From IMG/VR virus record IMGVR_UViG_3300026484_000295, positions 96,001-160,000 of that record: a stretch of 64,000 nucleotides of DNA; one strand, written 5' to 3'. The notes under the pieces were generated by a model. The model was given only the letters and a program-made list of their open reading frames with translations, did no database searches and was not told where the DNA came from. Position numbers and translations under genes: made by a program. Position 1 is the first letter of the stretch, and every line of letters starts with the position of its first letter. Shown in pieces: positions 41,266 to 61,166 of this stretch. The stretch comes from a virus.

Positions 41266-41916
41266 ATGAAATTTTCAGATTTAGATTTAGATATACCTTC
41301 TAAATTGTCAAATGATATTAGGTCTAAATTTATAAGGGCGTCGGTTAAAAATAATGGAAAATATCAACCTCATCCAGCAGGTATATATTTGTATAAAAAT
41401 ATACCTCAATTTAACAAAATTGCAATAGCCGATTATAAATTTATGGAGAATAATAATTATCAAAAAATTGATATTTTGAATAATACATTTTTAGATAATA
41501 TTACAAATGATGAAATGGATGAATTTATAGATTTAATTGAAATGGAAGAAATTGATTGGAATAAACTATATAAGTATAATGAACCATATCAACTTAGTAA
41601 ATATCCATCGATATTAAAAGAATTTCAGGTTTCATCGGTATTTGATATTGCTATGGTTTTATCTATAATAAGACCTGGATCAATTAAAAAATATGATACT
41701 TTAAAAAAAGCTATGAAAATAAAAAAAAAGATTAGTAAAGATATAAAGTATTATGATATTTTAAAAGACACATATGGTGTCCCCATTTTTAATGAACAAT
41801 ATAAAGAAATGGGTATTGATGATGGTGTGTATAGATATAAAAAACCGCATGCTATTGGCTATGCGTATGTATTATTGATTGATTTTTTAAAAAAAAGTCA
41901 TAAAATTAAGGAATAA
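41266..41916 (+). CDS. dnaE: Split minimal DNA polymerase III alpha, catalytic (C-side) fragment
   Basis: SDLDLD (PDFDVD), HPAG, KIDIL (KFDFL), IRPG, TYGV..F.EQ, Y.YKKPHA..YA in DnaE order. Confidence 0.8.
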   Translation: MKFSDLDLDIPSKLSNDIRSKFIRASVKNNGKYQPHPAGIYLYKNIPQFNKIAIADYKFMENNNYQKIDILNNTFLDNITNDEMDEFIDLIEMEEIDWNKLYKYNEPYQLSKYPSILKEFQVSSVFDIAMVLSIIRPGSIKKYDTLKKAMKIKKKISKDIKYYDILKDTYGVPIFNEQYKEMGIDDGVYRYKKPHAIGYAYVLLIDFLKKSHKIKE

Positions 41917-41923
41917 TTGTATA

Positions 41924-41948
41924 AAAAAAGATTTTTGAGGTCTTTTTT
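41924..41948 (+). terminator. Terminator after the dnaE fragment
   Basis: aaaaaagattt-ttg-aggtctttttt. Confidence 0.55.
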
Positions 41949-42018
41949 GATATAAATAAAAATGAATTATAAAAATAAGGTTGATATCTTATTCAAATTA
42001 AAAAAAAAGGAAGTTAAT

Positions 42019-42303
42019 ATGACAAAAGCAGATATGGTAGTACAACTACAAGAAATCATTGGTGAAGAAAAAGTTTCTAAAGCAGAATGTGAAAGAATCT
42101 GGAATGGTTTAATTGAAATTATTGCAGAAGAAGTAAAAGATGGTGGAGAAGTAAAATTTGGATCGTTATTTAAAGTGTATAAAAAACATAAAAATGCTAG
42201 AAAAGTAAGAAATCCAAGAACTGGTGAAACTTTTATGAAAGAAGCTAGAGATGAACTAGGCTGTAAAGTTATGAGAGAAGGTAAATACCTTATTCAAGAT
42301 TAG
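42019..42303 (+). CDS. hup: HU/IHF family DNA-binding protein
   Basis: MTKADMV..L, V.FG..F......AR.VRNPRTGE. Start revised to 42019 (AAGGA RBS); late box at 41951. Confidence 0.9.
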   Translation: MTKADMVVQLQEIIGEEKVSKAECERIWNGLIEIIAEEVKDGGEVKFGSLFKVYKKHKNARKVRNPRTGETFMKEARDELGCKVMREGKYLIQD

Positions 42304-42311
42304 GCATAAAA

Positions 42312-42653
42312 ATGAATGTTAGAGTTGGTGGACCAAATTCAGAAATAGAAGCTGAAGCCAAAAAGAAACTTATTACTGAGAAAAGGATTAAAGAAATCCT
42401 TTCTCAAAATCCTTCAAAACACGATTTAGACTTACTTAAAGTTAAAATACGGGATTTAACTCAATTTTATGAACGTATAATCCAATCTATCAATCATACT
42501 ATACGTATGGTGAAATCAAAAACACAGATGACTTATTTAGAACAAAAGAAATATATTCAATCTCAAGAGAAAGAATTATCACAAGCTAAACGTGAAAAAA
42601 GTAGATTAAGAAAATATTTGAAGGTATTAAATGAAAAGTTAGATAAACTTTAA
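42312..42653 (+). CDS. Hypothetical basic coiled-coil protein
   Basis: 113-aa ORF following HU. Confidence 0.6.
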   Translation: MNVRVGGPNSEIEAEAKKKLITEKRIKEILSQNPSKHDLDLLKVKIRDLTQFYERIIQSINHTIRMVKSKTQMTYLEQKKYIQSQEKELSQAKREKSRLRKYLKVLNEKLDKL

Positions 42654-42685
42654 TTAATATAAATAAAAAGAAAAAGGAAAATTTT

Positions 42686-43033
42686 ATGGCATATGAATAT
42701 ACAAGTGTAACACCAGGGATATTTAGTTTTACTATTCCGGGAGAAAATAAAACAGTAAAATTATTTACTGGTGATAAAATTATCGTTAAAAAACAACTTA
42801 CGGGTACATATCTTAAAATGTTTATTTTTAATGGTGAAGTTCCAGATGGTGATGAATTAAAAACTAATAAAACCAATCCAAAAGCAAAAGTAGCAGATAA
42901 AATAACGTCAGTTGTCGAAACTGAAGATATTCAATCAAATGATAATATAGATATTGAAATTAGTGATGCTATTAAAGAAGTTGAAGACAAACCAACCCCT
43001 AAAAGAAGAGGGAGAAAGAAAAAAGTATCATAA
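42686..43033 (+). CDS. Hypothetical late protein with basic C-terminus
   Basis: Late box at 42658, AAGGA RBS, ends KRRGRKKK. Confidence 0.65.
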   Translation: MAYEYTSVTPGIFSFTIPGENKTVKLFTGDKIIVKKQLTGTYLKMFIFNGEVPDGDELKTNKTNPKAKVADKITSVVETEDIQSNDNIDIEISDAIKEVEDKPTPKRRGRKKKVS

Positions 43034-43054
43034 AGATTCTTTATTAAAAATATT

Positions 43055-43729
43055 ATGACAAAAGATTTCTTAAAACAATACATTTTATCTATGTTGGGAG
43101 CATCACAAACAGATGTTGAATTGTCTGATGAAGATTTAGATATGTCTATATATCACGCTATAAATTATTATGGTCATAATTCATCTGAGGCATGGAATGA
43201 AGAATGGGTTGTCATACCATTAAAAGCAGGCGAAAATTATCATGAAATAGATGATTCGATAGATTTTATTATAAGTATGAATGCTATGGCAGGGCAACAA
43301 GGGACATCCTTAATTCCAGAAACAGTAGGTAAGTCTTATGAAAATGCTATGTTAGCTATGAATAATCAAGATAATGATTTACAACGGGTAATTAATCCTG
43401 TATCTACAAGGATATTATATAGGGATAATAAAAGATTTATACAAACTGATTTTGCTCCAACATCAGATTTAAATGTTGCTGCGAAAGTTATGAGGTATAA
43501 AGATTTAGCTCCAATATATTCTGATCCTTGGATACAAAAGTATGCTTTAGCTCAAGCAAAATTTACATTAGGTATTATTCGTAGTAAATATTCAAGTGTA
43601 TCTGCTCCTCAAGATATGTCTATGAATGGATCAGATTTAATTTCACAAGCTCAAACAGAAATTGAAAAATTAGAACAAGAGTTATTTGATAAATCGGTTA
43701 TTATGAATGGTGGTATTTATATCGGATAG
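43055..43729 (+). CDS. gp13: Neck protein gp13
   Basis: LKQYIL.MLGA...DVEL...DLD..I; WIQKYALAQAK..LG..RSKY; MNG..L...A..EIEKLE. Confidence 0.9.
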   Translation: MTKDFLKQYILSMLGASQTDVELSDEDLDMSIYHAINYYGHNSSEAWNEEWVVIPLKAGENYHEIDDSIDFIISMNAMAGQQGTSLIPETVGKSYENAMLAMNNQDNDLQRVINPVSTRILYRDNKRFIQTDFAPTSDLNVAAKVMRYKDLAPIYSDPWIQKYALAQAKFTLGIIRSKYSSVSAPQDMSMNGSDLISQAQTEIEKLEQELFDKSVIMNGGIYIG

Positions 43730-43792
43730 TTTATAAATTTATCGAATAATAATGAACAATAAATAAATATATGAAATAATGGAGATAAATTT

Positions 43793-44542
43793 ATGACTAG
43801 AACTGATTTTTTAAATGAAATATTACCTACATCATATACTGTAAAAGGGACATTATCTGAATCAGGACCAAATTCCAGAAAAGTTTATAATAATAAACCT
43901 AAAGATGTATTGTTTATTAAACGTATTGCGAGAGAAAAAATACATCTTGATGGTGCTCCAATCTTATATTTTCCAATTGACCCAGCCTCAAATGATTCAT
44001 TGCAATCTTTAGATTTTGATAATAGTTTAAAAGATCATACGCATATAACATTAGGAAAACCATTAGAAATGGTAGCAACATGGACACCTCAGGAATATCA
44101 AAATGATTTATCAAAATGGGGTGTTATGATGCCAGCCGGTTCAGACCACCAATTATATATTCATGTAACAGATTTAGAAGAAATTTTAAAACGAAAACCA
44201 TTAGTTGGTGATATAATCGAAACTGTTATGGATCGAACAAAATTTAAAGTAGCTGATGTATTTTATGGACACTCAAATTTATGGGAAAACATATTTTGTA
44301 TGGTAACATTAAGTAAAGTTACTTATGATAATTATACCTCACAATTAGATCAATATGATGAATCATATAAAGATACATATACAAAATTGGAAAGTATTTT
44401 AGATATTATGGATGGTACGGAACATCATAAATCTAATGCAGAAATACAAAAAGAAAAAACAAAAACTGATAGTCATAATAATAGTAAACCTAGAAAAAAA
44501 TCTATTGATACTGCATTAGATATAATGACTATGACATTATAA
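43793..44542 (+). CDS. gp14: Neck/head closure protein gp14
   Basis: Between gp13 and gp15; E.I...G....Y.P, LSKWG, RKP.VGDII. Confidence 0.75.
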   Translation: MTRTDFLNEILPTSYTVKGTLSESGPNSRKVYNNKPKDVLFIKRIAREKIHLDGAPILYFPIDPASNDSLQSLDFDNSLKDHTHITLGKPLEMVATWTPQEYQNDLSKWGVMMPAGSDHQLYIHVTDLEEILKRKPLVGDIIETVMDRTKFKVADVFYGHSNLWENIFCMVTLSKVTYDNYTSQLDQYDESYKDTYTKLESILDIMDGTEHHKSNAEIQKEKTKTDSHNNSKPRKKSIDTALDIMTMTL

Positions 44543-44557
44543 AAGGAATAGTAAATT

Positions 44558-47305
44558 ATGAATCAAAACTTTTATTATGAAGGTCGACAGATAAAAAATT
44601 ATTTAATTGGGTTTGCAAGTATATTTTCTGAAATACCTTATAAAAATCGAAATGGTAAATTAGAAAGTGTACCGATTCATTATGGTTCTCCATCAGATAT
44701 AATATCGTATTTAGAAATGAACGTAGATAATGATGAAACCCATAATAGAAATAGATTAAAAGATATATCCGTACCTTTATTTTCATTTCGTATGACATCT
44801 ATGGAGCAAAATTTAGAACGTAGAAGAGCTCCTCTTGATACTATTACTGTTGATTTACGACCATTAGGGTATGGAACAGGTTATGTAGCTATGAAACCAG
44901 CTCCCTTTAAATTTACATTTGAATTGTTATTGTGGGCTAGTAGTGATTATCAAGCATTTGAAATAGTTGAACAAATAGTACCTTACTTTAACACTCCTCA
45001 ACAAGTAACAATAGAGCCACTTCCTAGATGTCCAGTCTCAACAACAGAAGTTTTTTTAGAAAGTTTAGACATTGATACTGAGCCAGATTCTCAAAAATAT
45101 TCTGCGCTAGTAACAATGAATTTTAATTTGAGTGGATGGTTATTATCACAGCCACGCATTTGGTCAACAAATATGCAATTTGAATTATCTATGCTAGATA
45201 AAGATAATATTACTCAAGGGGTCGATTTAAATGCGACTGATTATTCTGTTGGGCATGAGATAATTGATAATAATAGTAGGAATATTAATAAAGAAACACA
45301 AAATGAAACTACTATTATATCATTTATAAAGAATTCTAATTTAAAAGAAATGTATTCTGAAACATTAGATATAATTAATATATTGAAAGATGAAGGGTAT
45401 ATTAGTTATGACGGTCATATTTTAACTGATGAAGATATTTCTATAATATATAAAGGTCAAGAAAAAGTCCTTTCTATTGAATATATAAATTGGTTAATTG
45501 ATGAAAATGAAGATCTTGAATATCTCTACAAAAATTTTAATATGCAAGAAAAATTATTAGCACAAGATTTGAAAGCTGATAATTTAATACTTGATACTAT
45601 AATTCATGATGATAGTGAGACTATTGAAATTTATTTAAAATTATTAGATAATAATTTGGTAACATTTGGTTTTAACTTAACAGATATACAAATATCTAAT
45701 GCTGAAAAATTAAATATATTTGGTACCCCTAGAATTGATATCGATGATGTTTTAAATAGAATGAAAATGTATTATAGTGTACTTACTAATTTCAAAGTAA
45801 AAAAAGAATCTATATTGTTTAATATTGATAGTAAAATTAAACCTACATTTATTAAATTTGAATTACCAAAAGATTTTGAAATTGATGAACGATTAAAAAT
45901 ATATAATACTAACTTCATAATTGATAAAATTGAAACTGTAATTAATGAGGATTTAAGTGTCGATATGTATCTGAAATTAGATTCTAACCAAAAATTATAT
46001 TATTTAGAAAATGATAATTTGATTGAAATGGAATATGATGAAAAATTTAATTTTAAACCTGTATTAGGTACTATGAATATTTATGCTATAACAATAGATA
46101 CACAATGTTATATATTTGGTGGACTATTATATGATCCAACGGATACTTTATTTGATTCCAATAAATATTTTATTAATGGACAAAAAATTCCATTAGAGTT
46201 AAGTAATGATATTCAAAAAGTGGTTGATATAGAAAAAGTATTAAATTCTTCATTTAAAAATATTGATAAATTTATAATCGCTACATTATTATTTAATAAA
46301 ATAAAAGATAATTTATTAGATATTAATGATTTAGATGATTATGATTTATTTAAAATTGCTAATAAAAAATATAATATTACAAAATATGACGTTGTTGAAT
46401 ATGCGAATATTTTATATTCGTTGAATACAAAGCTAACTAATAACATTGATTTAATTAGTATTCCTTCAAATTTACCAATTTCAACCGATGAATTTAATAA
46501 TAAGCAAATTGATATATCACCGGATTTATCTATGGTGTTAGCATTAGATAAAAATAATAAACCTATATATGATGTTAATAATGACGGTTATATAAACAAG
46601 ACCGATTTGGAAATATTAGGGTCTGAAGTTGATGATATAGAATCATATGACTATGAACTAAAATATGGTATTTGGTATAAACGTTTTAATATTAATGATG
46701 TATCAGAAGAAAGAATACTTAAAATATCACAGAATCTTAAAACAATCTATTATTTAACTGAAAAAAATGATATGATAGAATTAAAATTGTATTTAGAATT
46801 AAAAGATCAAGGATTAGTATCGGATCAATATTCTATAATTTCTACGGAAAAAAATTTAAAAAAAATAAAAGCTTTAGGTTATAATTCGGAAGAATTAGAA
46901 GATAAACTTCTTTTTATGAGAATGTTTGTAGAAGCGGTAAAAAATATAATGATTGATGATAGAGATTTTATATTATATCAAGTTCCAGAAATGAATGAAG
47001 ACAGTAAGTCTTTGTTATATCGAACTGAAGGATTGGATATTGATAGTATCGTTTTAGGTAAATTCATTGAAAAATATTTTCAATTATTGGATGATTATGA
47101 TCAACGTATAAAAGATGATATTCTATTTAGACAATTATTATCAAAAGATATGGGTGAATTTTATAATGCTGCATACGAATTTAATCTTATGTGGGTGGAT
47201 ATAGTAAAAACGGATTTTTTTAAAAATAGTTTGCAAGTAAAAACTCCAAGATTGGATGAAATTTTACCATATGTAAAAGAAAAAATAGATGAAATCCTAA
47301 AATAG
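44558..47305 (+). CDS. gp15: Tail sheath terminator gp15 with a C-terminal extension of about 680 aa
   Basis: FYY..QIK.YL..F..IFS, VPI.YG, P.FSF.MT, P.PF.F.FEL..W, EIVEQI.PYF.P. Confidence 0.85.
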   Translation: MNQNFYYEGRQIKNYLIGFASIFSEIPYKNRNGKLESVPIHYGSPSDIISYLEMNVDNDETHNRNRLKDISVPLFSFRMTSMEQNLERRRAPLDTITVDLRPLGYGTGYVAMKPAPFKFTFELLLWASSDYQAFEIVEQIVPYFNTPQQVTIEPLPRCPVSTTEVFLESLDIDTEPDSQKYSALVTMNFNLSGWLLSQPRIWSTNMQFELSMLDKDNITQGVDLNATDYSVGHEIIDNNSRNINKETQNETTIISFIKNSNLKEMYSETLDIINILKDEGYISYDGHILTDEDISIIYKGQEKVLSIEYINWLIDENEDLEYLYKNFNMQEKLLAQDLKADNLILDTIIHDDSETIEIYLKLLDNNLVTFGFNLTDIQISNAEKLNIFGTPRIDIDDVLNRMKMYYSVLTNFKVKKESILFNIDSKIKPTFIKFELPKDFEIDERLKIYNTNFIIDKIETVINEDLSVDMYLKLDSNQKLYYLENDNLIEMEYDEKFNFKPVLGTMNIYAITIDTQCYIFGGLLYDPTDTLFDSNKYFINGQKIPLELSNDIQKVVDIEKVLNSSFKNIDKFIIATLLFNKIKDNLLDINDLDDYDLFKIANKKYNITKYDVVEYANILYSLNTKLTNNIDLISIPSNLPISTDEFNNKQIDISPDLSMVLALDKNNKPIYDVNNDGYINKTDLEILGSEVDDIESYDYELKYGIWYKRFNINDVSEERILKISQNLKTIYYLTEKNDMIELKLYLELKDQGLVSDQYSIISTEKNLKKIKALGYNSEELEDKLLFMRMFVEAVKNIMIDDRDFILYQVPEMNEDSKSLLYRTEGLDIDSIVLGKFIEKYFQLLDDYDQRIKDDILFRQLLSKDMGEFYNAAYEFNLMWVDIVKTDFFKNSLQVKTPRLDEILPYVKEKIDEILK

Positions 47306-47334
47306 AAATAAATAAAATAAAAAAGGAGATTAAT

Positions 47335-47532
47335 ATGAGAATTTCAAAATTATTTGAATCTGCACCTAGAAAGAAAGGTAAAACTACTGCTAATGATGTA
47401 AGAGTGTGGTTGGATAAAATAAATAACGGTGAAGCTACTGAAGAAGATATTCAATTATATGATGATTTAAAAAGTATATCACGAAAATTGGGTGGTAAAA
47501 CAACAGTAATAGAAATACTTAAAGCTATTTAA
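47335..47532 (+). CDS. Small late protein, candidate internal head protein
   Basis: AATAAATA box, AAGGAG RBS, N-terminus MRISKLFE-S, own terminator. Confidence 0.6.
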   Translation: MRISKLFESAPRKKGKTTANDVRVWLDKINNGEATEEDIQLYDDLKSISRKLGGKTTVIEILKAI

Positions 47533-47555
47533 TATAGGGTCCACCCTATATTAAA
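47528..47555. terminator. Bidirectional terminator
   Basis: tttaatataggg-tcca-ccctatattaaa. Confidence 0.8.
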
Positions 47556-47561
47556 ACAAAA

Positions 47562-48266
47562 TCAAAATATTTTACCTAATAAAACTCTCGATAAATCTTC
47601 AGGTTTATATAAACTTACATCTTCAAACCAATGTATATTAACACCAGAACCTTTTAAAAATTCTAACGATTTAAAATATGCATCTCTACGTTTATTTAAA
47701 ATCTCTATATCTAAAGTATCATTAGAGTCTACCAAACCATTTTTAATATCAGATTCCGTTCTTTCAATTATTAAATCGTTTGGTAAATCAAGGAATATAA
47801 TATCTGTCGGCATTTTTATAAATTTATTTGTATTGAGAGCAACTTTTATAAATTCTAAATCAGTTCTACTATTATTATAAAATGCTTGGTATGCTAATGT
47901 GGATATAAAATAACGATCAAATAGATAATTTGACTCATTAATTATGTTAGTATTCACAATTTGATAATTATTACTATTATTATCATTAATAAGTTTAGTA
48001 TTTAAAAATAATTCATTCATCCAATAGTGACTCATTTCGGATAAAAAATTGGGTGTGTTTACTATCGATGAATCCGGATTTGATGAATTTAATTCATTTC
48101 TAATTATAGCTCCAATAGGGGTAGATGGATTTGGGAATGAAAATCTATTTAATTTTTTTCCATTTGTTCCTTGTATTTGATTCCATACCATTTCAAACGA
48201 ATCACAAAATGAAGATTTTCCAGTTTTATCAAGACCTTCAACGGCTATAATTTTATTAATTATCAT
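47562..48266 (-). CDS. tmk: Thymidylate (dTMP) kinase
   Basis: IIAVEGLDKTGKSS, FP...TPIG..IR, FDRYF.ST.AYQ, P...IFLD. Confidence 0.9.
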   Translation of the reverse strand: MIINKIIAVEGLDKTGKSSFCDSFEMVWNQIQGTNGKKLNRFSFPNPSTPIGAIIRNELNSSNPDSSIVNTPNFLSEMSHYWMNELFLNTKLINDNNSNNYQIVNTNIINESNYLFDRYFISTLAYQAFYNNSRTDLEFIKVALNTNKFIKMPTDIIFLDLPNDLIIERTESDIKNGLVDSNDTLDIEILNKRRDAYFKSLEFLKGSGVNIHWFEDVSLYKPEDLSRVLLGKIF

Positions 48267-48359
48267 AATTTAATACCTTTTTATTTTATTTATTTTTTAT
48301 TTTACAATTTTGTTTGAATAAAGAATAAATAAAGATAATTAATAAAACGGAGATTTAAA

Positions 48360-48986
48360 ATGTCTAGACTGATTGATATTCTAAATAAGAATAAAATGAT
48401 AAAATTAAAAGAAGCTGATGAAGAGGCTCCGGCTGAAAATACTGATGAACTGACTTTGGATGATGCTCAAACTGATACTGAAGATCCTGGAGCAGGCGAA
48501 GCTCCAGTTGAGGGTACAGAAGAAGTTCAGGATGATACTGCCGAAGATGAAGATGCTGTGATTGGTGATGAAACAGACAATTCAACTGATGTTCCGCCAG
48601 AAGAAAATAATGATATGGAAACACCCACAGAAGATATTGATAAAGCTATTGAGGAAATGATAGGTATGACGGAAATTCAGCATACATCTAGTTCGACGAT
48701 AATTGATTTTGAGGATGGTGGTCAAGTAATGTTTGTTCACCCAATGGTATCATTAAAAAGTGAAACCTTGAATGAAATAATTAAATTGATTATGAAAGAC
48801 ATAACAAAGACGTATGCTTCGAATAAAGATGAAATAACAGGGAAGGATTTAAATAAAACTAGGTATTGGAAAAGTTTAAGTACTCTTATTGAAACAATGG
48901 TTAGAAGTCAATTAACAAAAAGTGATAATATGAATGGTTTGATTGATGAAATTAAACAAGTATTTAAAGTTTTAGAAGTAAAATAA
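48360..48986 (+). CDS. Late protein with acidic low-complexity N-terminus (probable head-associated protein)
   Basis: LKE-A site followed by a D/E/P/T-rich tract; AATAAATA box upstream. Confidence 0.55.
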   Translation: MSRLIDILNKNKMIKLKEADEEAPAENTDELTLDDAQTDTEDPGAGEAPVEGTEEVQDDTAEDEDAVIGDETDNSTDVPPEENNDMETPTEDIDKAIEEMIGMTEIQHTSSSTIIDFEDGGQVMFVHPMVSLKSETLNEIIKLIMKDITKTYASNKDEITGKDLNKTRYWKSLSTLIETMVRSQLTKSDNMNGLIDEIKQVFKVLEVK

Positions 48987-48995
48987 TAGGATATA

Positions 48996-51239: not shown

Positions 51240-52250
51240 ATGTTTTCATTACCTATATACCCTGATCTTGAACCGAAGTATATTAGAGAAGAATTTATCC
51301 CTTTTTTAAAAAAACATAAATCATTAATATATGATTTATATTTTACAGTACGTATTCCACCTTTTGAACAAGATGCTATGGGTAGTATATTTAGTGATGA
51401 AGATATACCATCATTAATTTCTAATGCTTTAATTATTCAGAATGAAACAAAAATACCTATTTCAGCTGTATTTAATAATATTTTTATATCTCCATCAGAG
51501 AAAAATTTAGATATATTTATTAAACATTTTACACCATTATATAATTTGGGTGTTAAATCGATAACAATTCCTTTTACCTCATGGCTTATGTTTGGTAAAT
51601 TACAAAAATCTTTTCCTGATTTATATATAAAAAATACAGTTTTGCAAAGTGTATCTGAACCAAGAGAAATTTACAATCTAGCAATAAATGGATTTGATTA
51701 TATTAATTTAGATAGAAATTTATTACGTAATCAAAATAAACTTAAAATTATAGATAAAGCCAGAAAAGCTGCAGAATTAAAATTGGGTAAGACTATTAAA
51801 CTTAGTATTTTATTTAATGAGAACTGTATAGGTAATTGTCCTATACAGAATGAACATTATTTATACAATGTACATAATGATATTAAAACCCAACCAAATA
51901 TTTTTTTTAAATCGTCAATGGGTAAAATTAGTTGTCTTGAATGGGAAAAGAAATCTCCAGAGTTACTATTAAAAAAAGCATCAGTCATAAATGATGAGAA
52001 ATTTATGAACGGTTTAGAAATGATTGATGCATTTAAACTTCATGGTCGTGAATCTAAAAATGTTTTTTTAAATAGCTTAAATATAATTAAATCTACGTAT
52101 GACAAAACCGAAATAATAGATGAGTTATATTATACTCGTATTAAATATAATATAAAAGATATTGAATATCATACATGGATAGAAAAAGTAAAAAATTGTA
52201 ATTTTGATTGTTGGGATTGTACTTATTGTGATGATTTATTTAAAAAATGA
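51240..52250 (+). CDS. U32-family (peptidase U32-like) Fe-S protein
   Basis: GFDYINLDR, L.NE.C...CP...HY, SC..W, FKLHGRE, C-terminal C.FDCWDC..C. Confidence 0.7.
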   Translation: MFSLPIYPDLEPKYIREEFIPFLKKHKSLIYDLYFTVRIPPFEQDAMGSIFSDEDIPSLISNALIIQNETKIPISAVFNNIFISPSEKNLDIFIKHFTPLYNLGVKSITIPFTSWLMFGKLQKSFPDLYIKNTVLQSVSEPREIYNLAINGFDYINLDRNLLRNQNKLKIIDKARKAAELKLGKTIKLSILFNENCIGNCPIQNEHYLYNVHNDIKTQPNIFFKSSMGKISCLEWEKKSPELLLKKASVINDEKFMNGLEMIDAFKLHGRESKNVFLNSLNIIKSTYDKTEIIDELYYTRIKYNIKDIEYHTWIEKVKNCNFDCWDCTYCDDLFKK

Positions 52251-52251
52251 T

Positions 52252-52878
52252 ATGAATGCAGAATTAATCCATACTATCAGTAATAGAAATATACTTCCTA
52301 ATAATATATATCGAATAGAAGGACTAACTAGTTTTAAAACTCAAAATATATTGGCTGAATTAGCAAGAAATAAGGATGTATTAGAAATAGGTAGCTTATA
52401 TGGTGCAACTACTCTAGCATTATCATATTATGCAAAAGAAGTTACGACCATAGATAATTGGTCTGATATTGAAATTTTACCAATAAAAAATAATATTAAA
52501 ATAAAAAAAACTGTAATAAATAAGACATATGATATATTTAAAAATAATATAAAATCTATTGATAATATCAAATTAATTGTTGGTGATATTTTTTCAAAAA
52601 AAATTTGGTCTAAATTAAGATTAAGAAAATTTGAGTTGATATTTTATGATGGTCCTCATAATGTTAAAGATATTATACAGTTTATAAATTTATATTCATT
52701 TTTATTTAAGAAAGATACTATATTGATTTTTGATGATTATAATTTTGATGCTGTTCAAAAGGGAATAAAATATGGATTTGAAACTATAAATATAGAAATA
52801 GAGAAATCGATTAAAATAGAAACTGAAGGTGAAAGTAAATATGAAATATGGAATGGTATTGCGGTTTTTCAATTTTAA
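52252..52878 (+). CDS. Class I SAM-dependent methyltransferase (Methyltransf_24-like)
   Basis: VLEIGSLYGATT, TIDNW, LIFYDGPH, LIFDDY. Start revised to MNAEL. Confidence 0.85.
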   Translation: MNAELIHTISNRNILPNNIYRIEGLTSFKTQNILAELARNKDVLEIGSLYGATTLALSYYAKEVTTIDNWSDIEILPIKNNIKIKKTVINKTYDIFKNNIKSIDNIKLIVGDIFSKKIWSKLRLRKFELIFYDGPHNVKDIIQFINLYSFLFKKDTILIFDDYNFDAVQKGIKYGFETINIEIEKSIKIETEGESKYEIWNGIAVFQF

Positions 52879-52889
52879 AAGGGATATAA

Positions 52890-53960
52890 ATGGCTGATTT
52901 GATAAAAATAGAAACTGTTGATGGTCAAGAAGTAATTGATTCTAATGCTCAAGTTAATTATGATGCAATTTCTAATATTCCTCCAGCTTTAGTTGATACT
53001 AGTACTCATAATCATGATAATGAATATATGAGTAAAAATACTATTGAAGATGAATTTACTCGTATAATGAATAAAGTAGCATCTCTAACAAAGGCATTAA
53101 CTATTAGACCATTAAAAACAAAAGGTTTTTTAAACGGTGGTTATAAAAGTGGATATGTTTATGCACAAAGAGTTCAACGTTTTAATACTGTTACTGAAAC
53201 TGGAGTTGAAATCGGACAAATAGGTACAGTTGCATCGTATTATACACCTGGAGCTTCATCGGAATTGAAAGGTTATTATTTTGGTGATGCCAATAGTAGT
53301 ACAAAGGGTGGAGATCATACTAGAACAGGGAGAGATTTAGATAAAATTACATATTTAACAGAGGTAGAAGAATATTTAGGAAATATTACGTTGCATAATA
53401 CAAAATCAACAATCTATAATATCTATTCACAGTCTAAAATATTTTTATCAAATGCTGATGCAGGTTGGTCTAAGTTATCTGTTCTGACTGATACTATTGA
53501 TAGTGTATCGTCTACACTTAATGGGTATGGTATGGGAAGACAAGGTTTATCTTCAGAAACATTTGGATATGTTGTTCAAGCTGGTAATTATGAAAGAACT
53601 TCATTAAAATTTGATTATTTAACAAATGTAACAGATACTGGTACTACACAGCAGATTAGACAGCACCCTGCTGGACTTTCAAAAGATAAAGATAAAGGTT
53701 ATTGGATAGATTATGGAACTGCTAATAATTGGCGAGTAGATATGTTGAATAATACTGTATCTAATATCGTCTGTTTTACAGAAGGTTTCGGTGAAAGTAA
53801 TGCGTTAGGGTCTGAGAAAGAAGGGTTTATGATGGGTGGCTATGATGGTGCACAGCATGGGAAAGTTCAAAAAATGGTATGGGAAACAGAGACTGCTAGT
53901 AATGTATTGGGTGGATCATTAGCAATACCACAATCATCAGCTGGAATGGCAGAATCATAA
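52890..53960 (+). CDS. Putative fibre-associated beta-propeller protein with N-terminal HxHD module
   Basis: N-terminal I.NIP....THNHD..Y; about six repeats of about 40 aa (S....KGY..G...........Y.T(E/D)T). Confidence 0.55.
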   Translation: MADLIKIETVDGQEVIDSNAQVNYDAISNIPPALVDTSTHNHDNEYMSKNTIEDEFTRIMNKVASLTKALTIRPLKTKGFLNGGYKSGYVYAQRVQRFNTVTETGVEIGQIGTVASYYTPGASSELKGYYFGDANSSTKGGDHTRTGRDLDKITYLTEVEEYLGNITLHNTKSTIYNIYSQSKIFLSNADAGWSKLSVLTDTIDSVSSTLNGYGMGRQGLSSETFGYVVQAGNYERTSLKFDYLTNVTDTGTTQQIRQHPAGLSKDKDKGYWIDYGTANNWRVDMLNNTVSNIVCFTEGFGESNALGSEKEGFMMGGYDGAQHGKVQKMVWETETASNVLGGSLAIPQSSAGMAES

Positions 53961-53971
53961 GGTAATAAACA

Positions 53972-54958
53972 ATGGCAAAATTAAACCGACTTAAAGTAGA
54001 TAATAATAATATATTTGATACTGATAACAGGATAGATTGGACAAGATTTAAAAATATACCATCAACTTTAGTAAGTGCTTCCGGACATAATCATGATGAT
54101 TTATATTACAAATCGTCGATAGTTAATGATAAATTTAAATTGGAAGAGGATAAGCTTGATTTGCTTGAAAAACGTATTGAAGTATTATCCTATAAAACAG
54201 ATATAATGATGGCAGGTGGACTATTAAATAACACTAAAATACATAATTATAATTTTTCAACTGAAGTAACTAGTGAGATTTCAACAAATACTAATATGAT
54301 AAGTATTAATGCTCCTGGTATTTCGTCAAAAGAATTTGGTTATTTTACTAATACAGATAGAATAATTGATAAATTTTATCACTTTACATTAACAATTGAA
54401 TCGGTTCAACAATCAAATATTGAACCAAAAGCATCATTAATAGATTTTGCTGTTCAAAGCTTAGGTTTTATTACGGATGGTATTGGTTGGAATAAACTCA
54501 ATCAATTATTAGATATATGGGAAACTAAAAGTGATAATCCGGTTGATGTATCTGGACGACCATTTTTATCATCTAGTGTTATTGGGTATTGTAAGGGGTC
54601 AGACTTAGGTATGGTAAAAGAATTAACATATACAACAGAAGTATTAAAAGAATTATCAGAGATAAGAACAATCGGAATAACAACAGGCCTAAATAAAAGT
54701 TCAAATTTAGGTTATTGGATTTCAAAAATAAATGGTAATTATGAGCATAATTATCTAACAGAAAGCTTTAGATCAATAAATATTTTTATAGATGATATGG
54801 ATAATTCATCAACATCAACAACTGAATTTTTTGGTATGATTGTAGCAGGAGGAATAGATGGTGATTTAACTAATAAATTGATGTGGTCTACTCTTTCAAT
54901 TACACAATCTGTATCTCTTTCTTTAAATAAGAGTGGAGCCAGTTCAATAGAACTATAA
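53972..54958 (+). CDS. Paralogous beta-propeller protein with N-terminal HxHD module
   Basis: W....NIP....GHNHDD.YY; same repeat architecture as the upstream gene. Confidence 0.55.
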   Translation: MAKLNRLKVDNNNIFDTDNRIDWTRFKNIPSTLVSASGHNHDDLYYKSSIVNDKFKLEEDKLDLLEKRIEVLSYKTDIMMAGGLLNNTKIHNYNFSTEVTSEISTNTNMISINAPGISSKEFGYFTNTDRIIDKFYHFTLTIESVQQSNIEPKASLIDFAVQSLGFITDGIGWNKLNQLLDIWETKSDNPVDVSGRPFLSSSVIGYCKGSDLGMVKELTYTTEVLKELSEIRTIGITTGLNKSSNLGYWISKINGNYEHNYLTESFRSINIFIDDMDNSSTSTTEFFGMIVAGGIDGDLTNKLMWSTLSITQSVSLSLNKSGASSIEL

Positions 54959-54975
54959 CAAAACCGGAGAATATA

Positions 54976-55197
54976 ATGGATATATTAAAACTAGAAATTA
55001 ATAAACAAATAATATTAGATGAAGCGAATAAAATTGATTGGGGTAAAGTAAAAAATACACCTTTAATAAATATTACTAGTAATGCTCATACTCACGATGA
55101 TAGATACTATCGCCAAAGTGATGTTGATAGTAGAATAAATTCACTAAGTCTAGCTATAGCAGATTTAGAAGAAAAAGTAAATAACTTAGGAGTATAA
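54976..55197 (+). CDS. Short protein consisting of the HxHD module and a coiled coil only
   Basis: IDWGKVKNTP....AHTHDDRYY....D; GGAG RBS. Confidence 0.6.
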   Translation: MDILKLEINKQIILDEANKIDWGKVKNTPLINITSNAHTHDDRYYRQSDVDSRINSLSLAIADLEEKVNNLGV

Positions 55198-55199
55198 AA

Positions 55200-55886
55200 A
55201 TGACAATACCAGAAATAGATTATCCAATAATTAACAAAGTTAAAGATAAAAAAATTGTAATATATACAGCTAATAATGTAGGTGAATTTCCACATAATTT
55301 CACCAAATCATTTATCCCTAGTAGTATCCCTATAAAATTAGACTGGTACGTAGGATACACAAATATTATATTGGAAGATTTTAATATGATAGAAATATCA
55401 TTAGATATTGCTAAGGGTTTACAAACATTTAATATTATTAATCATTCAAAAAAAAGATATGATCAATATAATAGACCAAACCCAAACAATGAAAAAAAAG
55501 AAATAATTATGACTGATGATGAGTTATATTTACAAGTGAAAGCTAAAAAATTTCTAATAGAGAAAGAAATTATCCGTATGTTTGATAAAAAAATTGATAA
55601 TTTATATAAACAATATGGTCGAGAATCTGATTCATGGGATATACAATACTCAGAAGCTATTGAGTATAAAAATGGGGATATGGATACACCTTTTATAGAT
55701 ATTTTATCTTCAGAACGAAATATTAGTAAAGAAATATTAATTGAAAAAATTATTACTAAAAATAAAGAATTTAAACAAATTTTTGCTAAAATTATTGCTG
55801 AAAAACAGATACTTGAAGATAGATTAAAAATTATGGATACAGATATATTATTGAATTTATTTATTGATGAAAATATTGTAAAATAA
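55200..55886 (+). CDS. Putative tail fibre assembly-type protein
   Basis: C-terminal E..SW..Q..EA......TPF...L...R......L..KI pattern seen in fibre-adjacent phage proteins. Confidence 0.5.
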   Translation: MTIPEIDYPIINKVKDKKIVIYTANNVGEFPHNFTKSFIPSSIPIKLDWYVGYTNIILEDFNMIEISLDIAKGLQTFNIINHSKKRYDQYNRPNPNNEKKEIIMTDDELYLQVKAKKFLIEKEIIRMFDKKIDNLYKQYGRESDSWDIQYSEAIEYKNGDMDTPFIDILSSERNISKEILIEKIITKNKEFKQIFAKIIAEKQILEDRLKIMDTDILLNLFIDENIVK

Positions 55887-55909
55887 TTTAAAAATTGTGA
55901 GGTGTATCT

Positions 55910-56593
55910 ATGTCTAAATATCAAAATGAAATCAAAGAACTTATTGATATGCAACCTACAACAATGTCTAAATATCAAATTGATAATTTTGTTATTAATG
56001 AAAAAATGACAGACTATAAGATTCTAAAACAAATATTATTAGAATTAGGAACTCGATATAATGCGTATGAAGATATACTAATAGATTATGAAATTTTAGA
56101 ATTAGAAATAAAAAAATCTGAAGAAGAATACAATAAAATTAAAACTGATATAACTAAAAAAATTAAAAAATTAGAAATTCAGAAACAAAAAAATAATTTA
56201 AAACGTATGAAGAAAACTATAAAAAATCATGAATATGAAATTGCTATTTTTGAGGAAAATTATAAAAAAATTAAAGATAACTATGAATCGCCAAAATTAC
56301 TTTTACAAGATGAAACTGGGGAAGAAATATATTGGGTTAATAAATTTATAAAAGAAGCCCAGATTGATATAATGACTAATGGACGTATTGGTAAAGGTGT
56401 TTTAGATGCTATTCTTATGCTTCCAGAAAGATTACAAGAAATAATAGTGAATAATGCAGTTGCTCAAGCTGCTAATTCCAATTCATATATAGGATTTAAT
56501 GAAGCGGAAATTATTGAATCTATTAAATCATCTAAAAAGGTTTCATTGATGTTGAATACATTAATAGGTGAGAAAAAAGATGAGGTAGACTAA
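55910..56593 (+). CDS. Coiled-coil phage protein of the fibre-associated cassette
   Basis: MSKYQ...FV......Y....Q.LLEL..R, central coiled coil, E..YW......A..D....GRIG.G. Confidence 0.55.
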   Translation: MSKYQNEIKELIDMQPTTMSKYQIDNFVINEKMTDYKILKQILLELGTRYNAYEDILIDYEILELEIKKSEEEYNKIKTDITKKIKKLEIQKQKNNLKRMKKTIKNHEYEIAIFEENYKKIKDNYESPKLLLQDETGEEIYWVNKFIKEAQIDIMTNGRIGKGVLDAILMLPERLQEIIVNNAVAQAANSNSYIGFNEAEIIESIKSSKKVSLMLNTLIGEKKDEVD

Positions 56594-57339
56594 TGGGTTT
56601 CGATTTTAATAATTCATCTGGAGAATCATTTGGTAATATAGAAGATGTTTTTTTTAAAAAAGATGGGAAACCCATTATAGATTCCACAATTGGTAATAGT
56701 TCAGAAAAGGTTAATTTGAATGAATTAAAACAATCTATCCATGAAAAAAGTGTACAAAGTACTAATAATACTTCTGGAACAACAATAACAATATCTAAAG
56801 AAATATTAGATTTAGATGAAGATAAAATTGTTAAACTAACCTCGTTAGAAGAACGTAGAATGAATATTTCATCAGTACGTAATAAATCATTTATCAATAT
56901 AAATGATGGATCAGAAATTACTATTGTTGAAAAAACACAAATGTATAATGGTGTAAATTTATATACTGCTAAACAAGAAAATGGAGAAATGATAACATAC
57001 CCTCGTAGTATGTTTGTTGGTTCTACAAAACAATTTGTACCAAAAGAATTTTATATTCGAGAGGCTGAAAGAGTTTTGGAGGATACAATAATAAAACAAT
57101 ATAATAATATTAAAGCTTTGATAGAAAAACAAGAATTATTAGAAGAAACACCTGATAGCAAATATTTAGAATTAATGTTACCAGAGCCATTATCAATAGG
57201 TTCTATGGTTGTCCCTGATAAAGTTCAAATCCCCGTTAAAAGGATATTTGATATGGAATATAAAATAATGTTTTTGGAGAACGTTATTTGTTTAGATAAT
57301 AAAATAGCATCATTGTTATTTATTGATATTTGGTTCTAA
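56593..57339 (+). CDS. Hypothetical protein
   Basis: 248-aa ORF, TAATG-coupled, GAGG RBS. Confidence 0.65.
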   Translation: MGFDFNNSSGESFGNIEDVFFKKDGKPIIDSTIGNSSEKVNLNELKQSIHEKSVQSTNNTSGTTITISKEILDLDEDKIVKLTSLEERRMNISSVRNKSFININDGSEITIVEKTQMYNGVNLYTAKQENGEMITYPRSMFVGSTKQFVPKEFYIREAERVLEDTIIKQYNNIKALIEKQELLEETPDSKYLELMLPEPLSIGSMVVPDKVQIPVKRIFDMEYKIMFLENVICLDNKIASLLFIDIWF

Positions 57340-57531
57340 ATTATTATTAATTAAATAGTTTGTTAGATCACGTATGAATACGGAATTATTTGATGTGATA
57401 GGTATATCTCTAGGCAAAGTTTCTTTATCTAAAAAAACCAAAACATCAGATATTTCAAAATGGTCTGTTTTTTTAATAGAGAATAATTTTCTATTCATTT
57501 CGATTTTTCTTAATTCTAATTGATCTAACAT
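57316..57531 (-). CDS. Small hypothetical protein
   Basis: Start revised to MLDQLEL (AGGGA RBS), directly after 57542..57787. Confidence 0.45.
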   Translation of the reverse strand: MLDQLELRKIEMNRKLFSIKKTDHFEISDVLVFLDKETLPRDIPITSNNSVFIRDLTNYLINNNLEPNINK

Positions 57532-57541
57532 AAAAAATTCC

Positions 57542-57787
57542 CTACATACTTTTAAAATTGAATGAAAAAGATAAATCATCACTTTCTGTATTTTTTTCAT
57601 CTTTTAATTCTGATTCAATTAGTTTTTTAATTTTCTCAGCTCTCATTTTTTTAACAATAGTTTCATTTATTTTTGCTAATGTTTCTTCACTATAATTTGC
57701 AGTAGGTATATTTGGATTTTCATCAAAACTCATACTTATCACTTCATCATTTACGCTATCGAATGGTATTTTTTTTAATTCTGCCAT
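57542..57787 (-). CDS. Small hypothetical late protein
   Basis: AAGGAG RBS; TATAAATA at 57812. Confidence 0.6.
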   Translation of the reverse strand: MAELKKIPFDSVNDEVISMSFDENPNIPTANYSEETLAKINETIVKKMRAEKIKKLIESELKDEKNTESDDLSFSFNFKSM

Positions 57788-57867
57788 TTTTAACTCCTTC
57801 TATTTTAATAGTATTTATATCAAAAAAATGTAAAATAACTAAAAATATAATATAAGGATAAAAAATA

Positions 57868-59673
57868 ATGGGTATGACAAACGAACAAGAAGAATTTTCT
57901 AAAACACGAGACACCCATATATTGGCACTAGCATCAGCAGGAGCAGGAAAAACCCATACATTAATTCATTTTATTCACGATAAAATTAAAAGTGGATTGC
58001 GTCCAAACCAGATAATTTCATTTTCATTTACTCGTAAAGCTGCAAATGAATTGAAAGATAGAGTTAATAGTCATTTTAAAGGTATGGATTTTGATTTTAA
58101 ATATATATCGACTATACATTCTTTTTGTTGGAATGAAATTATTAAGCCCTTTTATAATGAAATTGGTTATACATCAATACCAACTATTGTACATGAGTTT
58201 CCAGATGAATTTATGGAAAAAGAATATAAAGAACACGGTAAAAAACAAGATAGAGCTGGATTTAATCGCAAATTTATGGATATAGTTTCTAAAGATTTAC
58301 AAGAAGAAGATTTTACGGCTCCAGAGACAGTACGCTTACTACAATATCTTGTTAGTCATAATCTAACTATGTTTGATTTTATGATTCATTTAGCTAATTT
58401 TGTATTGAAAGAAGAGCCAGTTAAATTACAAAAACATATAGGTACAATAGGCTATGTTATAACTGATGAAGCGCAAGATTTAAATCCAGCACAGTATAAA
58501 TTTACTAAGTTACTGCAGTCAGTTTTTAGTAATGAAAAGAATAATGTAAATTTAGTAAAAGTTGGTGATTTTAAACAATCGATATATGGATTTAGAGGTA
58601 GTGATCCTAGAATAATAAACACATTTGTTGATGAATTTGATCCTGTTGTTAAAATATTATCATATAATTTTAGGAGTGCTCCAGAAATTGTAGATTTAGC
58701 TAATGAGATTGCCGAAACTATTGATTTAGGGAATGATGCACTTAATGAGTCGAAATATGCTCAACATGGGTCTAGTATATCTGAAGGAGAAGTTTATAAC
58801 ATATACGATGTTGAAGAATTTATTGATGAATTAAAATTGATTGAAAAACCATTAGAGCAAACTTGTATTTTGGCTAGAACTAATATGGTTATAAAATCAT
58901 TAGCTAAGATTCTTGGAAAATTAGAAATACCGTATTATCTACATACTGAATTTGATATATTAAAGAGATCAGAAGTAAAATTTTTAATGAGTATGTTGAG
59001 TGTTGTGAGTCATGGATATAATAAAGCTATAGTTTTGGATATTATTAAAGCTGCAAAAGGTGGGATACCTATGAAAGTTGCTGCATCAATTAATAAATGT
59101 GATAATATGCAAATGGTTGGAAGAATGTTTCAAGATATTAAAAAAATACCAGAAATTATAAAAATTTATAATGATTTAGAAAAAGGGTTGTTTAATGCGG
59201 CGATACCTAAAATCGCAAAACTTATGGAAACTTCAAAAAAATCATCTGAACAAATTCAACAATCATTGGAACGTTTTTATCGTGATTTGAATACTGTTAA
59301 AACAACTGAAGGATTGGATTCTTGGATGGAAGCATTAGAAGAATTATTGTTTGAAGCTCAATTTTTAGAAGAAAAACAACAAGGTAAAGTACAGTTAATG
59401 ACAGTTCATAAAAGTAAAGGGTTACAATGGGATAATGTTATCTTTATTTATGATTTCAGTTTATTAGAGCAGGTAGAAAATGATTTTTATGATTTAGAAG
59501 AAGAAAAGCGTGTAGTTTATACTGCTGTAACTCGACCAACAACTAATTTAGTTATCTGGGATTTAGAACAACAGATGATTAGTAGTTACTTTACAAAAGG
59601 GTCATTGTTAAAGATGATAGAAAATGCTCTAAAAAAAGGTATTTTAGATATAGAGGATTTTTCAAAATATTAA
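57868..59673 (+). CDS. uvrD: UvrD/Rep/PcrA superfamily 1 helicase
   Basis: ASAGAGKT, FTRKAANEL, STIHSF, DEAQD, VGDFKQSIYGFRG, YNFRS, ILARTN, MTVHKSKGLQW, EEKRVVYTAVTR. Confidence 0.95.
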   Translation: MGMTNEQEEFSKTRDTHILALASAGAGKTHTLIHFIHDKIKSGLRPNQIISFSFTRKAANELKDRVNSHFKGMDFDFKYISTIHSFCWNEIIKPFYNEIGYTSIPTIVHEFPDEFMEKEYKEHGKKQDRAGFNRKFMDIVSKDLQEEDFTAPETVRLLQYLVSHNLTMFDFMIHLANFVLKEEPVKLQKHIGTIGYVITDEAQDLNPAQYKFTKLLQSVFSNEKNNVNLVKVGDFKQSIYGFRGSDPRIINTFVDEFDPVVKILSYNFRSAPEIVDLANEIAETIDLGNDALNESKYAQHGSSISEGEVYNIYDVEEFIDELKLIEKPLEQTCILARTNMVIKSLAKILGKLEIPYYLHTEFDILKRSEVKFLMSMLSVVSHGYNKAIVLDIIKAAKGGIPMKVAASINKCDNMQMVGRMFQDIKKIPEIIKIYNDLEKGLFNAAIPKIAKLMETSKKSSEQIQQSLERFYRDLNTVKTTEGLDSWMEALEELLFEAQFLEEKQQGKVQLMTVHKSKGLQWDNVIFIYDFSLLEQVENDFYDLEEEKRVVYTAVTRPTTNLVIWDLEQQMISSYFTKGSLLKMIENALKKGILDIEDFSKY

Positions 59674-59695
59674 TTTATAATCAATAAATAAATTT

Positions 59696-60073
59696 ATGAT
59701 TGATATAAAAAAAATTAAAAAAAATGATAATGTTTGGTGTATTTCACAGTCACTGGAACAAATGATATACCCTTTGAAAGCAACGTTTATTAAATTGGAA
59801 TCTTCAAAATCTGATAAATTAGTTCTTGTAAATTTTAATAATAAAACTATATGTTATCCATTACATCTGTTATTTGAAACAGAATTAGATGCTAAGATAT
59901 ATGGTTCTGTAAATTTTATGAAATTGTATTATAATTTTGATCCTTTTTTTGTATCAGAAAATATTGATGAACAAATTTTAAAAGAAGCATCATATTTAAT
60001 GAATACATTTGAAAAAAATAATCCGTCTAAATTTTTATATTATTGGATGGGAAATGTACCAAATAGATTCTAA
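59696..60073 (+). CDS. Hypothetical protein (paralogue of the next gene)
   Basis: 125 aa; C-terminal A......EKNNP..FL.YW. Confidence 0.6.
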   Translation: MIDIKKIKKNDNVWCISQSLEQMIYPLKATFIKLESSKSDKLVLVNFNNKTICYPLHLLFETELDAKIYGSVNFMKLYYNFDPFFVSENIDEQILKEASYLMNTFEKNNPSKFLYYWMGNVPNRF

Positions 60074-60389
60074 AATGTGGGGTATTGTATATAAATTTGA
60101 TACTCCAAAATTAGTAATAATTAAAGATATAATTGAGACTAAAAATAGTTTGATCTATAAAGTTAAATATAAAAATAAATTGTTTGATATTTTTAATATT
60201 GATATATATCCTTCTAAGATAGAAGCTGATATATTTTGGTCAATTACTATACAAGAAGAATTTAAATATACGCAAAAACAACCATCATTATTTATGACGG
60301 ATGAATTTGAATTTGCTGTAAGAAAAGCAAACAAGATATTATTGTATTATGCTGACAATAATCCGGATATTTTATTAAAATATTTTTAA
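60054..60389 (+). CDS. Hypothetical protein (paralogue of the previous gene)
   Basis: Start revised to MYQIDS; C-terminal A......ADNNP..LL.YF. Confidence 0.55.
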   Translation: MYQIDSKMWGIVYKFDTPKLVIIKDIIETKNSLIYKVKYKNKLFDIFNIDIYPSKIEADIFWSITIQEEFKYTQKQPSLFMTDEFEFAVRKANKILLYYADNNPDILLKYF

Positions 60390-60586
60390 GATAATACCGC
60401 TTTAAATTCTCTACCTGGATAACGATCTTCATTTTTATAAAATTCACATTTAAAATTTCTTTCAGAAACTCTAAAACCAAATTGTTTTTTTGCACTTTTG
60501 AAAATCGAACAATCATTAAAATGATCACAACATATACACGCGTAGTAAGTACACGATTTTTCATTTAATAATGTATTTAATTTCAT
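60386..60586 (-). CDS. Small Cys-rich late protein, candidate internal head protein
   Basis: GAGG RBS; TATAAATA at 60611; MKLNTLLNE then six Cys. Confidence 0.6.
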   Translation of the reverse strand: MKLNTLLNEKSCTYYACICCDHFNDCSIFKSAKKQFGFRVSERNFKCEFYKNEDRYPGREFKAVLS

Positions 60587-60659
60587 AGAATACCTCTTGT
60601 AATTTTATGTTATTTATATAAAAAATGTAAAATATACTAAAATCTTATAAGGGTAAAAT

Positions 60660-61166
60660 ATGGATGAATTAGCACCAGGTCTGATATATCTTTCTGATTT
60701 GAATAAACTTGTATATTCAAACTCATATATTATAAATTCTGGAAGTAAATTGAGTTCAATTTCTAATGATTTAGGAACATATGCTGAGTATATTTCAGAC
60801 GATGATAGAGATTTATTATATGCAAAGTCTATTGGAGTTAAAGTTTTTAATGAGATAGTAAATGAATTTGATTATTCGCTTATAAATGATATTGATACTG
60901 ATAGAGAAATTGATAAATTAAAAAAACAATTTTCTGAATTAAGTGATTTAATTGAAGATGAATATGATTATATCAAGTTATCAGCGCATAATATTCTTTT
61001 ATTAAAAATGGCTTTTATACTTAAAAAACATTTAGATTCATTAAATACATCAGTTTATTTAATGCGTGGATCTGGAGTATCATCATTCATATTTTATTTA
61101 ATAGGTTTAAATAAAGTCAACCCTATTAAATTTGGGTTAGATTATAAAAATTTTTGGAATAATTAA
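60660..61166 (+). CDS. dnaE: Split minimal DNA polymerase III alpha, N-side (GRGS) fragment
   Basis: MRGSGVSSFIFYLIGLNKVNPIKFGL...F aligns with DnaE [31 protein letters not shown]. Confidence 0.8.
   Translation: MDELAPGLIYLSDLNKLVYSNSYIINSGSKLSSISNDLGTYAEYISDDDRDLLYAKSIGVKVFNEIVNEFDYSLINDIDTDREIDKLKKQFSELSDLIEDEYDYIKLSAHNILLLKMAFILKKHLDSLNTSVYLMRGSGVSSFIFYLIGLNKVNPIKFGLDYKNFWNN

Follow-up and report, generated by a model that had tools for sequence, protein, structure and literature searches.

C-family DNA polymerases are the replicases of bacteria. Proteins related to them have also been noted in phages: in phage CBB, a protein resembling Pol III alpha, with 172 aa instead of 1120 aa, is encoded beside a DnaQ gene and "appears to be truncated" (PMC5259590), and Pol III alpha and epsilon genes were reported as conserved in most Rak2-like phages in the paper describing Atu_ph07 (PMC6102473). 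The window analysed here is a stretch of 64,000 bp, positions 96001-160000 of the 172,404-bp IMG/VR virus record IMGVR_UViG_3300026484_000295 (about 25% G+C), whose gene context is that of a T4-related large myovirus. It carries, on the plus strand, a gene for a 168-aa apparent relative of this truncated protein (the N-half, 60660..61166) and a distant gene for a 216-aa protein (the C-half, 41266..41916). We consider it likely that the two are chains of one enzyme, a miniature two-chain C-family (DnaE-type) nucleotidyl transferase (mini-DnaE) with an active site that would form only on non-covalent association of the chains, and that this enzyme serves as an accessory polymerase.

The N-half is known as a "truncated Pol III alpha", and we found no description of its pairing in the open full-text literature. 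The C-half gene is mentioned neither in PMC5259590 nor in PMC6102473, and was annotated as "hypothetical" in all six cultured phages viewed (Xoo-sp13, XacN1, XaC1, EJP2, Slicko01 and RAS14). Likewise, neither the pairing nor the resulting miniature enzyme is described in a jumbo-phage overview (PMC7824862), in two C-family censuses (PMC3919608 and PMC12926913) or in a study of polymerase swapping (PMC11348598). The second of these censuses discarded fragments of less than 200 residues and called the PHP domain universal in the C family (PMC12926913).

The N-half matched Pfam DNA_pol3_alpha (PF07733) at model positions 21-95 of 260, with a score exceeding the curated cut-off, and matched over its full length the family phrog_11127, labelled "DNA polymerase" (E 5.3e-10). 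Its residues 1-70 form a conserved small alpha/beta domain, for which neither the ESM Atlas nor an exhaustive structure search yielded an assignable fold or a usable lead. Residues 71-168 represent the first part of the DnaE palm, including the invariant MRGSG triphosphate-binding loop, and the C-terminal end reads ...MRGSGVSSFIFYLIGLNKVNPIKFGLDYKNFWNN, the last residues being ...NFWNN*. The C-half begins with MKFSDLDLD and matched DNA_pol3_finger (PF17657) at model positions 54-123 of 166 (32.8 bits vs a cut-off of 22), as well as phrog_11778, also labelled "DNA polymerase" (E 1.6e-19, residues 4-206); both PHROGs consist of short phage proteins. Its residues 1-79 constitute the remaining palm, with the catalytic aspartates D5, D7 and D69 (also D9) and an HPxG motif, and residues 80-216 a shortened fingers region bearing IRPG, TYG..EQ and YKKPHxxGY.

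Since sequence similarity alone was marginal, structure comparison was needed. The predicted structures had pLDDT (predicted local distance difference test) values of 89.9 for the N-half and 74.8 for the C-half, and C-family polymerases were the only clear structural matches of either. Residues 71-168 of the N-half matched residues 279-394 of Escherichia coli DnaE, 304-414 of Mycobacterium tuberculosis DnaE1 and 824-966 of PolC, and the C-half, from residue 1 or 6 to residue 215, matched residues 400/403-780 of the E. coli enzyme, 460-838 of the Thermus enzyme and 964-1296 of PolC, so that the aligned ranges of the two halves abut on DnaE. Profile alignment to the actual E. coli DnaE sequence placed the end of the N-half at about residue 393, with the RGSG loop inside the stretch covered, and the C-half from D401 to near residue 781, with D5/D7/D9 aligned with D401/D403/D405; at most about three residues are lost at the junction. 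The hallmarks of a C-family palm were found across the two chains, the G[GS] loop (G363/S364) in the N-half and the carboxylates (D401, D403 and D555) in the C-half. Those of the fingers, PF17657 together with RPG and KSHxxxY, were found in the C-half, though the region is about 54 residues shorter than in DnaE.

The remaining modules of DnaE are gone. The PHP domain (PF02811) was not found anywhere in the record, the control being matched in 14/14 genomes, and the HhH/beta-clamp-binding domain (HHH_6, PF14579) gave no match in the record or in two relatives. The thumb is deleted, as 27 residues separate D9 from H36 vs 106 between D405 and H511 of the E. coli enzyme, and everything beyond E. 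coli residue ~781 is missing, including the OB fold. Within the record, PF07733 and PF17657 each matched only the known half; with one match for each and none for PHP or HHH_6, no extra DnaE pieces are hidden elsewhere in the record. An earlier note on this DNA, made from the sequence alone, had read the two open reading frames (ORFs) as joining at the catalytic motif, with the three catalytic aspartates and the HPAG, IRPG, TYG..EQ and K.HA..Y motifs retained over a total of about 385 aa and no intact PHP, HhH, clamp-binding or OB domain. Pfam, structure comparison and alignment to the E. coli enzyme bear this description out, the summed length being 168 + 216 = 384 aa.

We observed that the two halves are strictly linked by occurrence. 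One copy of each was present in 12/12 large or complete records, namely this record, viral contigs of 289,880, 306,333 and 87,921 bp, and eight cultured phages (XacN1, XaC1, SCTP-2, CM1, RAS14, Xoo-sp13, Escherichia phage EJP2 and the 141-kb Alishewanella phage Slicko01). The sole record with a single half is a fragment estimated to be 54% complete. The halves lie on the same strand, 11-116 kb apart, are adjacent in none of the 12 records, and their order varies by lineage. The break point is constant, as the N-half genes (170-183 aa) stop 0-4 residues past an ...EFF/EFL/NFW motif.

Furthermore, a natural single-chain form exists, represented by P0241 (375 aa) and by P0275 and P0276 (376 aa, 78-81% identical, from independent datasets). 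P0241 spans the two halves, which are joined by some 10 linker residues: its residues 25-180 correspond to positions 12-167 of the N-half profile, residue 191 onward corresponds to the C-half profile from position 7, and the protein reads ...GRGSSSAS...KEFIKDNKEGIYNIADFDID.... The nearest relatives of this fused family (51-59% identity) are split C-halves beginning with M..IPDLDLDM. The fused family was found on short metagenome contigs only (2.4-5.9 kb), and a scan of viral contigs returned no P0241-like fused form. The existence of a fused form provides independent support for the two halves being one functional unit. Given that the N-chain lacks the metal ligands and the C-chain lacks the triphosphate loop, the homology mapping, together with the strict co-occurrence, the conserved break and the fused ortholog, makes an obligate two-chain heterodimer the natural reading. 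Separately, a 374-aa viral protein among the BFVD structure matches, A0A249Y020, may be another fused form.

Both halves are under purifying selection and are not decayed pseudogenes. Using a 94%-identical relative, the 289,880-bp viral contig, as the reference (synonymous divergence dS ~0.35), the ratio of nonsynonymous to synonymous substitution rates (dN/dS, omega) was 0.073 for the C-half and 0.107 for the N-half, compared to a median of 0.12 for 30 neighbouring genes and 0.077 for the Mre11-like gene. The earlier note had proposed to look for co-occurrence across phages and for neutral evolution as a sign of decay; the first was found throughout the 12 records, and the selection values speak against the second. 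In the close families (20 N-half homologs of 167-174 aa and 22 C-half homologs of 203-229 aa, within a range of 47-68% identity to the window proteins), the catalytic and nucleotide-binding residues are invariant. When 1.84 billion representatives were searched exhaustively with the profile of the C-half family, 287 matches were obtained, and the best 150 of these comprised about 100 short proteins (~170-235 aa) and, ranking below them, full-length DnaE proteins in which the match lay around residues 410-700. Among 105 short C-half relatives (median identity 27%), the equivalents of D403, D405, H511, G514, K553, D555, R639 and P640 were present in 100-104, the KSHxxxY motif was found in 91, and the first catalytic aspartate lies 0-11 residues after the start in all 105. 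GRGSS was present in 6/6 cultured-phage N-halves examined.

Each half gene has its own start, stop, Shine-Dalgarno sequence and TGTAAAAT promoter-like element, located on the plus strand at 41238..41245 for the C-half (28 nucleotides (nt) 5' of the ATG and followed by GAAGGA) and at 60626..60633 for the N-half (34 nt 5' of the ATG and followed by TAAGGG). The raw count of TGTAAAAT is at the level of chance (13 vs 14.8 expected), and its placement 5' of starts ranks first among 280 permutations of the same letters (36% vs 3.2% pooled); thus, only its position relative to starts is non-random. In the record, 18 of the 50 copies sit 28-56 nt 5' of a same-strand start, with a consensus of about W5-TGTAAAAT-A. 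The copies in the window are at 37508-37515 (minus strand), 39353, 41238, 48299-48306 (minus strand), 55877, 57829 and 60626. The element, which is distinct from the T4 late promoter TATAAATA, precedes at least 16 genes besides the DnaE halves, nearly all with functions in replication, recombination or nucleotide metabolism, including those for NAD-ligase, clamp loader, the C-piece of a B-family polymerase, exonuclease, topoisomerase II, replication initiator, SbcC and helicase. Therefore, the promoter that had been proposed as common to both halves is real on both, but it is no private link between them and instead marks a replication/recombination regulon.

A B-family (T4 gp43-type) polymerase (PolB), whose presence elsewhere in the genome the earlier note had left to be checked, is encoded in the record outside the window, in pieces. 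It is cut at motif C by a naturally split intein: the N-piece (G000:C1:20156-20959) ends with ...SDTD and an adjoining N-intein of about 107 aa, and the C-piece, 20 kb away (G000:C1:41177-42331), starts with a 41-aa C-intein (...ILVHN), then SCYF and the C-terminal part of the polymerase. In the relative G002, the exonuclease part and the 399-494 piece of PolB are separate ORFs 10-22 kb apart, which brings this replicase to at least 3-4 pieces. Directly after the clamp-loader gene lies a gene for a DnaQ/epsilon-like 3'-5' exonuclease (G000:C1:28786-29403; PF00929; phrog_192, "DNA polymerase exonuclease subunit"), whose product could serve either polymerase as a proofreading partner. The same combination of PolB, clamp loader and DnaQ has been reported for Rak2-like phages (PMC5259590, PMC6102473).

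Because a T4-type PolB, a clamp loader and a DnaQ-like exonuclease are also present, an accessory role for mini-DnaE is likely. Each chain is produced from its own promoter-like element and ribosome-binding site, both as part of the replication/recombination regulon. The break falls inside the Pol-beta-like core, between the GS loop and the DxD strand; the N-chain would supply the helix-RGSG loop holding the incoming nucleotide triphosphate, and the C-chain the strands with the three metal-binding aspartates, the K553/H511 equivalents and the shortened fingers. With the loop and the metal ligands mapped by homology to separate chains, neither should be active alone. The most likely role of mini-DnaE is that of an accessory, DNA-templated polymerase of low processivity, which could plausibly extend primers, fill gaps or carry out synthesis linked to recombination-dependent replication. 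The earlier note had suggested priming, repair or end-processing as possible roles. The retained DnaE-specific fingers motifs would favour templated synthesis, and the loss of the thumb and of all modules that bind DNA and the clamp points to synthesis in short, distributive stretches or to a need for partners; without PHP, thumb, clamp-binding and OB modules, DNA grip and proofreading probably come from partner proteins. More tentatively, and with considerable doubt, we suggest that this may be the smallest natural C-family polymerase, an obligate heterodimer of about 44 kDa without PHP, thumb or clamp-binding modules that carries out an essential, dedicated replisome step in jumbo phages related to T4; for example, it would receive RNA primers, or the 3' ends that Mre11/Rad50 produce, and pass them on to PolB, with grip and proofreading provided by separate phage proteins including the DnaQ-like exonuclease.

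Several observations weigh against the assignment of the pair to a two-chain DnaE-type enzyme. The family profile of the C-half matched the sequences of solved DnaE chains in the PDB only marginally (E ~1e-3), and that of the N-half retrieved no DnaE from the PDB sequences, its one match being a chance match (E 0.78). The C-half model is weak at residues 140-195 (pLDDT ~50), and the record is estimated to be only about 61% complete. Moreover, as the pair lacks the thumb, some 54 residues of the fingers and the HhH domain that binds clamp and DNA, templated synthesis on a bound duplex is not assured; the deleted fingers stretch presumably includes E. coli R709/R710.

We give next to no credence to the idea that the halves are covalently joined after synthesis, at the RNA or protein level, even if the same genome trans-splices PolB and cyanobacterial DnaE, according to work cited in PMC3919608, is joined by protein trans-splicing. 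As already noted from the letters, intein motifs are lacking: no intein residues were found at the break, where the N-half ends with ...NFWNN* and the C-half begins with MKFSDLD, and neither half gave a Pfam match to a Hint/intein domain. The PolB intein parts served as a positive control for intein detection in the same record, and thus the genome appears to trans-splice where needed, but not for the DnaE pair. RNA trans-splicing was considered and rejected, as no intron or other Rfam family was found in the window, and each gene has its separate expression signals. That mini-DnaE is instead the main replicase, and the fragmented PolB an accessory or decaying enzyme, is very unlikely. The pieces of PolB are tens of kb apart and mini-DnaE is at least as constrained as core genes, as such a role would have it. 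However, an apparently intact split intein, whose junction residues are canonical, spans the break in PolB motif C, implying a functional PolB product, PolB homologs are reported among the T4-core genes of Rak2-like phages (PMC5259590, PMC6102473), and mini-DnaE has no recognisable clamp-binding, thumb or proofreading module.

A different question is whether an active two-chain nucleotidyl transferase must be a templated polymerase. It could be a terminal transferase working at DNA ends, a de novo primer maker or a transferase modifying nucleotides or RNA, which we regard as unlikely. Loss of the thumb, HhH/clamp-binding domain, OB fold and part of the fingers does leave a near-bare Pol-beta-like core with a helical module, and the position of the C-half directly after Mre11/Rad50 in this lineage would suit end-processing. 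Yet this linkage is lineage-specific, clamp-loader, helicase or primase genes being nearby elsewhere; furthermore, the RPG and KSHxxxY motifs, which handle deoxynucleoside triphosphate and template, are kept across very divergent members, and both halves carry the TGTAAAAT element of the replisome genes. It is highly improbable that the halves are non-catalytic decoys or adaptors for host or phage replisome parts, or that they have unrelated separate roles. Inactivated homologs that act as accessory subunits are common in other polymerase families (PMC12926913), and the extra 70-aa N-terminal domain of the N-half has no assigned function. Conversely, the metal ligands and GS loop are near-invariant at 27% identity, which would not be expected of a scaffold, and the partner-binding modules of DnaE (PHP for epsilon; internal and C-terminal sites for beta and tau) are exactly those that are gone. 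Independent roles fit poorly with strict co-occurrence, an identical break point and a fused form.

The surroundings of both genes are conserved. Genes for Mre11/SbcD-like and Rad50/SbcC-like proteins of the T4 gp47/gp46 type (38262..41231, plus strand) lie directly 5' of the C-half, and the gene for a gp55-like late sigma factor (61166..61783, plus strand) has an ATG overlapping the N-half stop (TAATG); both positions are kept in relatives. Within the close family, the gene order is stable (Mre11-Rad50-[C-half]-HU-like and helicase-orf125-[N-half]-gp55). Between the two halves, the window carries helicase, baseplate, tail and adaptor genes. In XacN1 and SCTP-2, a clamp-loader gene is near the N-half, and in Slicko01 the C-half is flanked by RFC and primase/helicase genes.

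In the apparent 270-bp gap 5' of the N-half, the opposite strand carries a 66-aa Cys-rich ORF (60386-60586, minus strand; CTYYACICCDHFNDC...) that has AAGAGG as its Shine-Dalgarno sequence. Its conservation in the 94%-identical relative is 88%, no counterpart turned up in more distant relatives, and it may encode a small zinc-binding protein. After gp55 comes a conserved 243-aa ORF, orf243 (61853-62584, plus strand; omega 0.035), at roughly the position of the T4 sliding-clamp gene. Suspected on this ground to be a sliding clamp, it could not be confirmed as such, as it gave no Pfam match and the only PHROG that it matched is one of unknown function; it may encode a clamp that has diverged very far. 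In phage CBB, no gp45 homolog was found (PMC5259590). Two giant ORFs also occur on the minus strand of the window (2632-11142, 2836 aa; 20483-27148, 2221 aa).

C-family polymerases have been described as large, single-chain and always PHP-bearing. A conserved two-chain version of 384 residues that is under selection would define the minimal catalytic core of the family, one in which the chain can be interrupted between the loop that binds the nucleotide and the strand that binds the metal. It would also give the replication apparatus of a widespread group of large phages a second, unexplained polymerase; cultured members of this group include phages of E. coli, Xanthomonas, Stenotrophomonas, Alishewanella and Salicola. 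The pairing also corrects the "hypothetical" annotations of the C-half, and a minimal polymerase amenable to splitting and re-fusion is attractive for enzymology and protein engineering.

Compared to the known systems, mini-DnaE shares with bacterial DnaE and the C family the Pol-beta-like palm with its GS loop, three aspartates and K553/H511 equivalents, as well as RPG, TYG..EQ and KSHxxxY. In contrast to DnaE, a single chain of 900-1200 aa, it comprises two chains with 384 aa in total, has no thumb, HhH/beta-binding domain, OB domain or tau-binding tail, and carries a novel 70-aa domain where DnaE has PHP. Cyanobacterial split-intein DnaE (dnaE-n/dnaE-c) is likewise a C-family polymerase from two distant genes, but its halves carry intein fragments and are spliced to a full-length enzyme, whereas the phage break lies elsewhere, inside the catalytic core, and the product is miniature and intein-less. 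Separately encoded chains and non-covalent assembly are shared with the intein-less split B-family phage polymerases (chimallivirus, PMC13648687; adjacent T4-like genes of Atu_ph07, PMC6102473). These are unrelated in fold, act as main replicase in the cited cases and keep their accessory domains, whereas mini-DnaE is a stripped-down second polymerase. Finally, among the genes annotated as "truncated" relatives of Pol III alpha, XacN1 ORF245 was confirmed to be homologous to the N-half, and CBB_328 and Atu_ph07 gp316 match it by their published descriptions; published accounts present the N-half as a truncated gene without a partner, whereas it is likely one of two chains of a single enzyme.

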